Origin: an uncultured Alphaproteobacteria bacterium
GTDB lineage: Bacteria; Pseudomonadota; Alphaproteobacteria; Rs-D84; CACZYB01
Direction: 5' to 3'
DNA: 64,000 bases
NCBI GenBank assembly: GCA_963544995.1
Contig: CAUUHH010000001.1
Location: 31,465-95,464 of the forward strand
The position numbers and the translations under genes were made by a program. The notes under the pieces are model-generated. The model was not told the origin of the DNA. It saw only the letters and a program-made list of their open reading frames with translations, and did no database searches. Of the stretch, positions 30 through 3,054 are shown piece after piece. Each line of letters opens with the position of its first letter. Within the stretch, counting starts at the first letter, position 1.

Positions 30-1232
30 TTATTCATATGGGTTTTTATACGGTTTTTTTTCTGTGGTTTCATCATCAAAATCCATATTATCAGGCATTA
101 CTATTTCATCGTTTTTTTGTTTTTTATAATAATCCAACAATTGTTTTGTAACAGACAAAGTTTTTTCATTTTTTGCATTTTGCATTATGTATTCACCGCG
201 ATCTATTAAACAATCTAATGTATCAATCAAAAAAGCATAGCCACGATATTTCTCAAGACTTTTTGCTTTTTTATGAAGAGAAACAGCAGACATAATTAGT
301 CGTAATTCAGGCATAAATTTATGCATAGTATTAAAACTGTTTATATACCAATTTATATCATTTTGCTTTTTATTTTCTGTTTTTTCAGGTGTAGATTTTT
401 GAGTTATCTGGTTTATAGAATTTTCATTGGGAGTATTTGAATCAAAATTAGTTTTTTCGTCAGATTCTGCAATATTTTCAGTAATATGAATTATATCATC
501 TGTTGAAGCATCAGTTTTAAAAGATATGGATTTTGCAGAAATCGTTGTATTTTCAATATCTGCATCAGATAAATTATCATCGTAGTTTGCTTTTTCACTT
601 AAATCAGAACTTAATTCTGTTTTACCCTCATCAGTAAATACTTCATTATTAGAATCTAAGTCATCTGTTATTTTATCAACCTGATTTAAAACATTTACCC
701 TTACCTTATTTACATAATCTTTTATATCCTTGGTTTTGGTTTTTGTATCTTGTTTTTTATTATCAACAACTTCTGTTTTATCGGAATCGTATTTATAATA
801 GTATTTTTCTATTTTTTCTTTGTTTTGTTCTTCATGTTTCGTTATTGCAAAAAGTTCAGATAGTTTTTGATATAGGCGATTTCCTTCTATTCCAAATTTT
901 GGAAGGTATTTTTTATATTTATCCAGGTCACATAAATCTTCTTTTGATATAGGTTTTAAGTAAGATGTTAATTGTACAGCCGAGGCCCAATATGCGACAC
1001 CCATTTCATATTCGCTGGCACGTTTAAAAATTTCGTAATAGTGAGCTCGTTCATTTTGTGTAAGGGATGAAATATGCATTTCAAGATTAAATTTCCAATT
1101 ACTACCAAAATATGATTTTGCCTTAGTTTGAAGTTCAGTAAGCGTTTTGGTATCACCAGCAAAATTATCAAGAGCCCGCATCACATCAGCAAGAGAACTT
1201 TTATGAGAAAAAAATTTTGTTAGAACACCCAA
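30..1232 (-). CDS. Hypothetical protein. N-terminal ~60-aa 'B' module and C-terminal 'A' module flank a long Lys/Asp/Asn-rich low-complexity core. Paralog of the adjacent 251-aa protein with swapped module order.
   Basis: 400-aa ORF. N-terminal segment (…GVAYWASAVQL…DLDKYKKYLPKFGIEGNRLYQKLSELF) aligns with the C-terminus of ORF 1266..2021 (…ALNYWQECVAI…KLSDYKKYLAMFGAGGKDLYEKVKQLV). C-terminal YINSFNTMHKFMPELRLI aligns with the N-terminal YLNIFHQLHFINAGMEIL of the neighbour. Co-oriented and tightly spaced with the two upstream genes. Confidence 0.5.
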   Translation of the reverse strand: MGVLTKFFSHKSSLADVMRALDNFAGDTKTLTELQTKAKSYFGSNWKFNLEMHISSLTQNERAHYYEIFKRASEYEMGVAYWASAVQLTSYLKPISKEDLCDLDKYKKYLPKFGIEGNRLYQKLSELFAITKHEEQNKEKIEKYYYKYDSDKTEVVDNKKQDTKTKTKDIKDYVNKVRVNVLNQVDKITDDLDSNNEVFTDEGKTELSSDLSEKANYDDNLSDADIENTTISAKSISFKTDASTDDIIHITENIAESDEKTNFDSNTPNENSINQITQKSTPEKTENKKQNDINWYINSFNTMHKFMPELRLIMSAVSLHKKAKSLEKYRGYAFLIDTLDCLIDRGEYIMQNAKNEKTLSVTKQLLDYYKKQKNDEIVMPDNMDFDDETTEKKPYKNPYE

Positions 1233-1265
1233 TTTTAATCCTTTACACCTTTACTATCTTAATTA

Positions 1266-2021
1266 TTAAACAAGTTGTTTAACCTTTTCATATAAATCCT
1301 TGCCTCCGGCTCCAAACATAGCCAAATATTTTTTATAATCGGATAATTTATCTTTTATTTCAGAGGCAGGTTTACTTTTTGGATTTTTCACTATTGCAAC
1401 GCATTCTTGCCAGTAATTTAACGCAATATCAAAAACACAAAGTCCATCAAAGGTTTTTCGCATATTGGATGCGTCTTTTTCTTTACTATTTTTTAAAATA
1501 TTTTTTACCTCGTTTTTCCAATCTGGGCCAAGATCCCTTATAACCTCACTAGATTTAAAATTTTCAAGTAAAGCAGGCGTATTTTTAAAGGCGCGTAGTA
1601 ATTCGTATAATTGTTTATATTCATTATTTATTTCTGTTTGAATAGAGGAGGTTTCTGCATTATTTTCTGGTTCAACATTTTTCATCGTGGCAATTTTATT
1701 ATAACTGGTATATTCAAGAAATTTTTCATGATCATCAAACACCAATTCGCCAAATGGTAAAACATCGGCATCTATTTTATTCATAGGAGTTTTGCCAGTT
1801 TTTAAATTTTTTATATGTTGAGCAAGCTTCATACCGCCAGCAAGTTCAGGAAGTAATTCAATTACATCGTCTGACATGGTTAAAAAATCGTTATTTAAAA
1901 TTTCCATACCAGCATTAATAAAATGTAATTGATGGAAAATATTTAGGTATTTTCGACCTATTTTTAAAGCATCTTCCCTTTTTTGTTGTGCAGCAAAATC
2001 TAATTCTTTTGTATTACTCAT
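1266..2021 (-). CDS. Hypothetical protein with A-x-B module order; paralog of ORF 30..1232.
   Basis: 251-aa ORF with clean codon structure, 33-nt gap to the downstream gene. Shares two short conserved modules with the neighbour, in opposite order. Confidence 0.5.
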   Translation of the reverse strand: MSNTKELDFAAQQKREDALKIGRKYLNIFHQLHFINAGMEILNNDFLTMSDDVIELLPELAGGMKLAQHIKNLKTGKTPMNKIDADVLPFGELVFDDHEKFLEYTSYNKIATMKNVEPENNAETSSIQTEINNEYKQLYELLRAFKNTPALLENFKSSEVIRDLGPDWKNEVKNILKNSKEKDASNMRKTFDGLCVFDIALNYWQECVAIVKNPKSKPASEIKDKLSDYKKYLAMFGAGGKDLYEKVKQLV

Positions 2022-2055
2022 TTAAACCCCTCTCCCTCAATTAGTGCAAATAAAA

Positions 2056-3054
2056 TTAGTTCATAGAAATAAGCACCACTTTTTGAAGTTTTTTAATTTC
2101 ATCATTTGAAAAATAGATTTTTTCATCTGGACCATATCTGAAACCATAAAATGAGCCATCAATATTTTCACGAAGGAAGAATACTCTTATTTCCTTTCTT
2201 GTTCCATTATCGCTTAACACCTCTACTGCCATATCGCCACCCTTTGGTTCTTTTCGTGGATCGATAAATAAAATAGAACCAGGCGATATATATAGACCAA
2301 GTCTGTCACTAGTCAATTCAATTGCATAGATACTGGATTGGTGTTTTTCGGTAAAAGGATATAAAAATCGTCTGTCACTTTCATCATCGATAATTATATT
2401 ACCATTATCCAAAGTTTTTGAATGAACCAATACTTTGTTAAATTTTATTACACCTTCGTCTGTATATACATTTTCGGTTGAACGGAGAACATCTGTCATT
2501 TTTACAATAGAATCAGCAGATGATGTATCGTTACTCATATACTTATCAAGGGCGCCCTCTTTTTTAAGATTGTATATTGTTGTTAAAAGGTCAGTTATAT
2601 CGCGATCGAGTGCTCTGGCAACAGCAACCAGTTCTTTTTCGTAGATTTCTCTTTGTCCTATTTCAATTCGATGGTATACAGAAAGAGTTAGGCCAGATTT
2701 TTCTGCAATATCAAGTAAGGTTAGATTTTTTTCATTTCTTAATAAACGAAGTCCAGCACCAAAAATTTTAAGACCGTTATCTTTGTTTAGATTTACCCTT
2801 TTATCTATTTCTTTTTTCCAAGCTTCTAAGATTACCTCGTCATCTTCCTCTTTGGAAATAAATATATCGGACATAGAGCAGCCAATAAATTTTGAAATTA
2901 TGGACATTTGTTCCTGATCCACCTTTCTGTAACCTTTTTCTATTTTTGAAACAGCAGAAAGACTGATCCCCAATTCATCGGCCAAATCCTGCATAGATTT
3001 GCCAGCCATCTTCCTTAATATCCTTATCTTATTTGGGAAAATGATTTCTTCCAT
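2056..3054 (-). CDS. XRE-family transcriptional regulator with two tandem HTH_XRE domains and a C-terminal S24/LexA/cI-like domain (phage-repressor-like).
   Basis: First HTH: AGKSMQDLADELGISLSAVSKIEKGYRKV. Second HTH: LRLLRNEKNLTLLDIAEKSGLTLSVYHRIEIGQRE. C-terminal ~120 aa (…LGLYISPGSILFIDPRKEPKGGDMAVEVLSDNGTRKEIRVFF…) resembles the S24 peptidase/cI cleavage domain. SD AAGGAGG lies upstream of the ATG. Confidence 0.6.
   Translation of the reverse strand: MEEIIFPNKIRILRKMAGKSMQDLADELGISLSAVSKIEKGYRKVDQEQMSIISKFIGCSMSDIFISKEEDDEVILEAWKKEIDKRVNLNKDNGLKIFGAGLRLLRNEKNLTLLDIAEKSGLTLSVYHRIEIGQREIYEKELVAVARALDRDITDLLTTIYNLKKEGALDKYMSNDTSSADSIVKMTDVLRSTENVYTDEGVIKFNKVLVHSKTLDNGNIIIDDESDRRFLYPFTEKHQSSIYAIELTSDRLGLYISPGSILFIDPRKEPKGGDMAVEVLSDNGTRKEIRVFFLRENIDGSFYGFRYGPDEKIYFSNDEIKKLQKVVLISMN

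Follow-up and report, generated by a model that had tools for sequence, protein, structure and literature searches.

A conserved gene cassette of uncultured Alphaproteobacteria with a putative regulatory and adaptor role in type IV secretion loci

Introduction

Regulation that couples transcription to secretion by partner switching is known from the ExsA/ExsD/ExsC/ExsE system of P. aeruginosa and from FlgM/sigma-28. Among regulators with two tandem helix-turn-helix (HTH) domains of the XRE type, Wmk of the Wolbachia prophage WO is prophage-borne. The type IV secretion system (T4SS) loci known as the Rickettsiales vir homologue (rvh) contain tandem VirB6 paralogues (PMC8035066). Lipoproteins of envelope machines comparable to the one discussed below include BfpB, the secretin of type IVb pili, which has the upstream partner gene BfpG (PMC12531336), and the N0-domain lipoproteins of T4SSs, Xanthomonas VirB7 (PMC3093366) and Legionella DotD (PMC2951367). 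Here we analyse an operon at the beginning of a 64,000-nucleotide stretch of contig CAUUHH010000001.1 from an uncultured gut alphaproteobacterium (the window denotes this whole stretch). The operon encodes a regulator (R) and two related proteins, G2 and G3, and continues beyond the window start with a gene for a lipoprotein, G4.

We interpret R-G2-G3-G4 as a lineage-specific form of a conserved cassette of P-type (Rickettsiales-vir-like) T4SS loci, with a regulatory and adaptor role in host-associated, uncultured Alphaproteobacteria. This interpretation, which takes anatomy and genomic context together with mechanism, is tentative and stands slightly below even confidence. The statement on the anatomy and context of the cassette, considered by itself, is likely to be correct.

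Results

Three consecutive open reading frames (ORFs) encode R (3054-2056, 332 amino acids (aa)), G2 (2021-1266, 251 aa) and G3 (1232-30, 400 aa, with a TTG start that is the same in 8 homologues); all of them, and all their domains given below, lie on the minus strand. They are located exactly where the original prediction, made from the sequence of the window, had placed them, and its description of a repressor-type regulator heading an operon with two related proteins holds. The intergenic gaps between R, G2 and G3 are 33-34 nt, and a terminator scan found no terminator-like site on the operon strand across the three genes. The guess that the operon continues past the window start was correct as well: in L005, a metagenome contig 98% identical to the window, it runs on beyond G3 with G4 (460 aa as called), followed by MacB_PCD/FtsX and ABC genes of the LolC/LolD type. 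The G+C content of the window is ~29%.

G2 and G3 have one domain in common. BLASTP aligned G2 164-250 with G3 42-127 (E 6e-8), and profile-profile comparison with hhalign gave a probability of 98.1% (E 1.4e-13) for the complete family alignments and of 98.7% (E 3.9e-16, 115 columns) for the sub-alignments of G2 aa 135-251 and G3 aa 14-128. This domain, B (~115 residues, predicted to be helical), is C-terminal in G2 (1269..1619) and N-terminal in G3 (849..1193), where it is a paralogue of the G2 copy, as the original prediction had proposed for its module B. The same prediction postulated a second shared module, A, and a reversed order of the two modules, to be explained by a domain swap, a circular permutation or a partial duplication within the operon. 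When the alignments were checked, the similarity of B proved genuine, whereas that of A was not homology. The module A pair YLNIFHQLH (G2) and YINSFNTMH (G3) was aligned by hhalign over 9 columns with E 0.068 and a probability of 0.8%. With broad profiles of 109 sequences of the N-terminal domain of G2 (NTD) and 44 sequences of the C-terminal domain of G3 (C), the probability was 0.5%, and a different 8-residue stretch scored best. The secondary structure predicted for the G2 N-terminal region also differs from that of the G3 C-terminal region, and the B-NTD architecture was found in 0 of 120 representative relatives. Because the similarity of module A is a chance match of 9 residues, we reject a swap, a circular permutation or a two-module reversal for G2 and G3. 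G2 has the structure NTD-linker-B and G3 the structure B-disordered linker-C; B alone is shared and nothing is permuted.

The AF2 models fit the view that the NTD and C are unrelated domains. That of G2 (pLDDT 81.6) is all-helical and has two domains. The NTD (aa 1-105, 1707..2021), with the signature RYLNIFHQLH in invariant columns of the family alignment A1, consists of one long and several short helices and is joined to the helical domain B by a disordered link (residues 115-131). In the model of G3 (pLDDT 57.9 overall), domain B is confident and aa 130-289 (366..845) are disordered (pLDDT <50). The original prediction had pointed out a long low-complexity stretch in the 400-aa protein, and this K/D/T/N/E-rich linker corresponds to it; its length varies among orthologues (alignment A2). 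Domain C (aa 290-378, 99..365) is modelled as a three-helix bundle spanning residues 287-376 (helices 287-320, 332-352 and 356-376), and is followed by a C-terminal tail (33..98) with the conserved sequence KPYKNPYE (alignment A2). In both families, the tails and linkers evolve fast compared with the conserved domains (alignments A1 and A2). No signal peptide or transmembrane (TM) segment was predicted in G2 or G3, and both proteins are predicted to be cytoplasmic.

To establish the genomic context of the cassette, we compared related loci. A metagenome scan with the R alignment yielded >279 relatives, and 80 loci, sampled from the human gut, the rumen and elsewhere, were analysed; when 96 R proteins were clustered at 80% identity, 15 groups resulted. 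About 110 related loci preserve the succession R, NTD protein, C protein, G4, and in the close clade of the window R-G2-G3-G4 was found in every locus, with varying housekeeping flanks. The cassette is single-copy, and at least 15 clusters of the regulator retain its gene order, whether the surrounding genes are housekeeping or T4SS genes. In 67 of the 80 metagenome loci, an ORF carries the NTD signature close to its N-terminus; the other 13 are accounted for by sub-threshold NTD genes, contig ends, inversions that move NTD-C-G4 to the other strand, and three detached R genes.

The dominant gene order in the metagenome loci is an array of 4-6 polytopic VirB6/TrbL-like paralogues, R, a long NTD protein, a C-domain protein (110-280 aa), G4 and a bitopic membrane protein, with VirB11 and VirB10 encoded on the opposite strand and converging on the cassette block. 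The cassette is located between the VirB6-like array and VirB10/VirB11 in at least 60 loci (most human-gut and rumen loci), and a VirB11 homologue was found in 23 of the 80 loci, mainly those reaching far enough downstream. The assignment of the neighbouring genes can be illustrated by locus L046, in which VirB10 matched TrbI (E 1.4e-32, 113.5 bits, cut-off 35), VirB11 matched T2SSE (E 2e-22) and the VirB6-like paralogues matched TrbL below the cut-off (E 7e-5 to 2e-4). In locus L029, the best NCBIfam match was VirB11 (TIGR02788, E 7e-46), accompanied by a weak VirB1-like SLT match. The VirB6-like proteins have 5-7 TM segments. The search for a T4SS neighbourhood in relatives, which the original prediction had suggested, was thus positive, the cassette being normally placed within a type IV secretion gene cluster, with G4 in the position where virB7 normally follows virB6.

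Similar to the rvh loci, the relatives analysed here combine 4-6 large polytopic VirB6/TrbL-like paralogues with a separate VirB(8)-9-10-11 block in host-associated Alphaproteobacteria. They differ from rvh in the insertion of the regulator, the NTD and C proteins and the secretin-like lipoprotein after the VirB6-like array, and in the M23 or Hydrolase_2 domains present in part of the VirB6-like proteins. The similarity to VirB6 is sub-threshold, and the flanks examined showed neither VirB4 nor VirD4.

Several additional features of these loci were recorded. The arrays of 4-6 VirB6/TrbL-like paralogues extend over 439-9821 in L046, 505-8728 in L030 and 1199-8907 in L028; some of the paralogues are fused to Peptidase_M23 (E 6e-25) or Hydrolase_2 cell-wall hydrolase domains, and small two-TM proteins (79-92 aa) are interspersed among them. 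The VirB10 homologue of L046 (17810-20977, minus strand) has at least 1,055 aa, with an ORF that reaches the locus edge, and contains eight N-terminal beta-flower repeats (PF21785, E 2e-33) ahead of the TrbI domain. The conserved bitopic protein encoded after G4 (L030 14752-15633, L029 14774-15763, L046 15525-16244) consists of a cytoplasmic N-terminal part that is disordered, a single TM segment and, in the periplasm, a domain of ~90 aa in which two Cys residues are conserved; it is absent from the window clade.

The distribution of the domains was studied in a wider set of relatives. Searching exhaustively with a G2-family profile gave 115 cluster representatives, and in the architecture census domain-specific HMMs were scored on 120 representatives. 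The NTD alone, or with a long tail of up to 1,013 aa, was the most frequent architecture (51/120), followed by NTD-B (27/120), B-C (21/120) and B alone or fragments (18/120). Two proteins (P0190 and P0217) are fusions of the NTD with a copy of the C-terminal domain of R (RCTD), and one (P0184) is a B-B tandem. P0190 is encoded directly 3' of the R gene of its own locus (L028) and shares 54% identity with this R over aa 139-322; judging from this alignment, P0190 is a partial duplicate of R in which the NTD takes the place of the HTH domains. Domain B is limited to the window clade and a few other loci (L029, L104), and where it occurs, it is usually present in both neighbouring proteins. The NTD recurs at the N-terminus of acidic proteins of 450-1290 aa, in which B was not found (all matches E>0.3). 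In distant loci, domain C was also observed as a stand-alone protein of 91-280 aa whose gene immediately precedes G4.

The long acidic NTD proteins may be secreted or surface-located. In the several that were examined, the tail is acidic and disordered and the DDWEWEYVDENG repeats are terminal; P0213, P0220, P0210 and the protein encoded at 11117-13507 of L046 start with the NTD, continue with a long acidic low-complexity region and have repeated DDWEWEYVDENG motifs at the end. One could consider that the T4SS secretes G2, G3 and the long acidic NTD proteins as substrates, or that they are located on the surface, with C as a dedicated chaperone and R as a local transcription factor. Such an arrangement would be consistent with the location of these genes in a T4SS locus beside a small helical protein, which resembles effector/chaperone pairs, with the long acidic tails and their terminal repeats, with the conserved KPYKNPYE tail of G3, and with the fast evolution of tails and linkers next to conserved domains. 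Against it, the NTD-RCTD fusion suggests a partnership with the regulator in the cytoplasm, the NTD and R show the highest conservation within the cassette, which is unusual for effectors, and the window clade keeps the cassette away from the VirB6-like array and VirB11. We consider the substrate and chaperone explanation unlikely.

The fourth gene, G4, is located just beyond window position 1 (11210-12592 in L005). The protein is highly conserved (71% mean column identity) and has a conserved lipobox Cys, and its family comprises >890 homologues, none of which has a Pfam domain. Pfam Secretin (PF00263) had no match at E<=1 in four G4 orthologues, matches to Pfam STN were weak (E 0.003-0.05), and comparison of the G4 profile with PDB sequences gave noise and no informative match. 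G4 did match a Rhodoferax plasmid gene annotated as 'type II and III secretion system protein' within a pil-like cluster. A 122-sequence G4 profile aligned with this Rhodoferax protein and with its PulD-like neighbour with probabilities of 98.3-98.6% (E ~1e-15) over 373-399 columns, including the C-terminal ELVVxISPRI motif; both Rhodoferax proteins carry Pfam Secretin (E 3e-16 and 2e-8). Because the profile aligns almost end to end with these Pfam-positive secretins, we assign G4, from its sequence, as a divergent lipoprotein of the secretin superfamily. Its mature part contains two invariant Cys residues, which may form a disulfide.

G4 resembles BfpB, VirB7 and DotD in the lipobox and in the weak STN/N0 matches, and the bfpG-bfpB pair in that a small partner gene always precedes it. 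Unlike the type IVb pilus secretins, however, G4 lacks a direct Pfam Secretin match and an adjacent pilus ATPase, platform or pilin gene, and the domain C protein differs from BfpG in having no signal peptide, as expected of a cytoplasmic protein.

The domain C gene is always found directly upstream of G4, even where R and the NTD are missing. In a distant, abundant gut lineage (L026 9686-13315 and L027 9662-13330), a block divergent from ftsQ-ftsA consists of a C protein (91-108 aa), G4 and MacB_PCD/FtsX and ABC genes (LolCD-like), which places a secretin-like lipoprotein together with a type VII ABC transporter, and contains neither R nor NTD. These loci raise the question whether the cassette is a T4SS-independent envelope device for the assembly or gating of G4, linked in some lineages to a LolCD-type ABC transporter, with G2 and G3 as a cytoplasmic scaffold and R as the regulator. 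C-G4 is indeed the most widely conserved pair, and in these two loci it occurs with MacB_PCD/FtsX and ABC genes in the absence of VirB genes; lolC/lolD-like genes also follow G4 in the lineage of the window, and the G4 family is large. On the other hand, the cassette is intercalated between the VirB6-like array and VirB10/11 in at least 60 loci, no pilus or type II secretion system (T2SS) ATPase, platform or pilin gene adjoins G4 in any locus examined, and the lol-like genes may be plain housekeeping LolCD. A T4SS-independent device is very unlikely in our assessment. Literature searches on a secretin with LolCDE, and on RF32 with secretion, returned nothing relevant.

R contains two XRE-type HTH domains, as the original prediction had described (Pfam HTH_3, E 8.8e-25, two stretches). 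HTH domain 1 covers aa 10-63 (2866..3027, the best HTH_3 stretch) and HTH domain 2 aa 98-159 (2578..2763; HTH_31 98-152, HTH_19 102-159). The prediction of a cI/LexA-like C-terminal domain (aa 195-332, 2059..2472) held in part: the domain is colinear with PHROG_4, lambda cI and UmuD, but it matches Pfam Peptidase_S24 (PF00717) only weakly (E 0.024, 14.8 bits; cut-off 23.3). PHROG_4, a family of cI-type repressors, aligned with R aa 91-330 (E 5e-20), and hhalign matched 18 R C-terminal domains to lambda cI aa 139-213 (E 5.6e-4, probability 30%) and to UmuD (E 5e-3). The domain thus bears a weak resemblance to the oligomerisation/S24 domain of lambda cI, and it probably serves oligomerisation.

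The S24 Ser/Lys dyad, whose conservation had been proposed as a check, is absent. Arg251, which is invariant in R orthologues, aligns with Ser149 of cI and Ser60 of UmuD, the position of cI Lys192 is V/L/F, and no Ser or Lys is invariant in the 18 C-terminal-domain sequences. Inspection of alignment A3 revealed no conserved AG or CG cleavage site between HTH2 and the C-terminal domain (aa 160-200). With Arg and a hydrophobic residue in place of the Ser/Lys pair, self-cleavage as in cleavable repressors of the LexA/cI type is unlikely. R would then be a stable regulator with the domain order of cI and without its self-cleavage chemistry. Compared with lambda cI, LexA and UmuD, R has a similar succession of HTH and a beta-rich C-terminal domain, colinear with cI aa 139-213, but it differs in having two tandem HTH domains instead of one, in the replaced Ser-Lys dyad, in the missing conserved Ala-Gly site and in the sub-cut-off S24 score. 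It shares with Wmk and other tandem-XRE-HTH proteins the presence of two HTH_3 domains in an alphaproteobacterial protein of ~300 aa; the Wmk match, however, covers one HTH only (aa 103-171, E 3e-12, 46.6 bits against an equivalog cut-off of 300), and R is chromosomal and T4SS-linked. Wmk and RstR were the best NCBIfam matches of R, both HTH-only and far under their cut-offs, and a search with the R profile against PDB sequences returned HTH matches or noise only. Within the set, R is the best conserved gene (mean column identity of 79% in the close clade); its identity to orthologues is 60-63% in that clade and, over the full length, 39-42% in distant loci.

The original prediction also offered a prophage remnant or a defence cassette as the origin of the module. 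An explanation of this kind, in which a cI-type repressor would control a prophage remnant, an immunity/defence or a toxin-antitoxin cassette, agrees with the cI-like domain order of R and with the matches of its HTH domains to PHROG repressor families, RstR and PADLOC HTH/control-protein models. For G2 and G3 it found no support. Searches of Pfam, NCBIfam, PHROGs and PADLOC with the two proteins gave noise only, Foldseek against BFVD gave nothing at E<1, and tblastn detected no match for G2 or G3 in 50,697 phage genomes and none for G2 in 72,556 plasmids. No integrase or structural phage genes were found near the cassette, its single copy and gene order are maintained over 15 regulator clusters with different housekeeping flanks, and the dyad required for SOS-type induction is absent. 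We regard a prophage or defence origin as highly improbable and as the least likely of the explanations considered.

The original prediction had seen no resemblance of these proteins to housekeeping families, and by the same searches neither G2 nor G3 belongs to a known family; no family or fold match was found for the NTD, B or C in the libraries searched. The G2 and G3 homologues (n=22 and n=8, respectively) come from uncultured gut, rumen or termite metagenome-assembled genomes (MAGs) labelled Alphaproteobacteria or 'Rickettsiales bacterium', and all of these homologues carry the name 'hypothetical protein'.

Upstream of R, a 178-nt intergenic region (3055-3232) is shared with the divergent gene rpmJ (L36, 3233-3355, plus strand). 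A candidate promoter of the R operon (TAGAAT, 17 nt, TATAGT; 3097..3125, minus strand) was assigned by inference in this region, and the block with this promoter-like motif appears by eye to be conserved among close-clade loci. A simple sigma-70 consensus scan did not call this candidate and gave no convincing promoter on the strand of the operon. For rpmJ, a strong sigma-70-like promoter was noted at 3160-3188 (plus strand). Further along this strand, a tRNA-Leu gene (4358-4442) overlaps the start of a listed 474-aa ORF (4364-5788); the trigger-factor gene is really shorter than this ORF (433 aa in L005).

The window itself contains T4SS genes. A VirB10 homologue of 758 aa (13798..16074, minus strand), bitopic with a TM segment at 38-64, was detected by tblastn with the L046 VirB10 (E 9e-22), and it also matched ComB10 in the PDB (E 2.6e-6) and gave 509 plasmid VirB10/TrbI matches. 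A VirB9/TrbG homologue of 503 aa with a signal peptide (16112..17623, minus strand) was identified by tblastn against annotated TrbG/VirB9 plasmid genes (E 4e-49). A 242-aa ORF upstream of virB9 (17692..18420, minus strand), with one TM segment at 34-64, is a VirB8 candidate from its position and topology (hydropathy); no sequence match was found for it. The virB10 gene lies ~10.7 kb from R on the same strand as the cassette, and housekeeping genes on the other strand separate the virB(8?)-virB9-virB10 block (13798-18420) from the cassette. No VirB4, VirB6, VirB11 or VirD4 was found in the 64-kb window. Large window ORFs considered as VirB4 or VirD4 were rejected, as they encode PepF, GlgB, DnaK, RecJ, UvrA, BamA and LptD.

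Discussion

The NTD, B and C are undescribed domains, and a cassette of this composition as an accessory block of T4SSs is absent from the libraries and literature searched. To explain how its products could act together, we considered a partner-switch mechanism, the most economical one, which we regard as doubtful. In this mechanism, the paralogous B domains would bind each other, so that G2 and G3 form a single cytoplasmic adaptor; the pairing is suggested because B co-occurs in adjacent genes and because a B-B tandem exists in one relative. The NTD may act on or with R, since an NTD gene comes next after R in 67 of the 80 metagenome loci and NTD-RCTD fusions occur in two relatives. Such a fusion has the architecture of a DNA-binding-deficient partner, which could heterodimerise with R. 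Domain C may be functionally tied to G4, because it is invariably encoded directly upstream of it, including loci that have neither R nor NTD. R would repress or activate the operon, and possibly the vir genes too, and the G2-G3 adaptor would act as a partner switch that modulates R in response to the envelope machine and its state. The ExsA/ExsD/ExsC/ExsE and FlgM/sigma-28 systems offer a functional analogy only: as in the cassette, a transcription factor is encoded with small cytoplasmic partners in a secretion locus, but these proteins have no sequence or fold relationship to those of the cassette. By this analogy, the sharing of a domain between G2 and G3 suggests competitive pairing.

Several observations weigh against a T4SS-associated regulatory and adaptor cassette. 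The proposed protein-protein links are inferred from gene order and domain fusions, and a direct contact between C and G4 is hard to picture for a cytoplasmic domain and a periplasmic or outer-membrane lipoprotein. The pairing of B domains would not be universal, as in L104 the C protein contains B and the NTD protein has no detectable B. The seven polytopic proteins matching TrbL (E 7e-5 to 1e-2) all scored below the 25.9-bit cut-off. No operator-like inverted repeat or palindrome was found upstream of R. The occurrence of G4 near lolC/lolD-like genes in loci lacking R and NTD means that part of the cassette is not T4SS-specific. Finally, in the window clade the cassette is detached from most T4SS genes and flanked by housekeeping genes; within 8-10 kb of it, a VirB6-like, VirB11, VirB4, VirD4 or bitopic-protein gene was found in 0 of 27 close-clade loci.

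A more far-reaching version of the T4SS-linked cassette can also be formulated. The cassette would then be an undescribed accessory T4SS module, in which a secretin-type lipoprotein occupies the VirB7 position and a non-cleavable cI-like regulator is controlled by an adaptor made of NTD, B and C, so that the secretion state would be coupled to transcription by partner switching. We consider this version quite unlikely.

For the annotation of these genomes, the analysis brings two corrections: G2 and G3 are not products of a domain swap, and the label of a cleavable repressor is unsupported for R. The bacteria in question are uncultured Alphaproteobacteria that commonly inhabit the guts of humans and animals, and their T4SS loci carry a conserved four-to-five-gene block in which only the R HTH domains can be assigned to Pfam/NCBIfam families. 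Should the T4SS be regulated or built by the cassette, three new protein domains would be defined, a machine regarded as well catalogued would gain new core or accessory components, among them a secretin-like one in the outer membrane, and the control of secretion in host-associated alphaproteobacteria would become more accessible to study.

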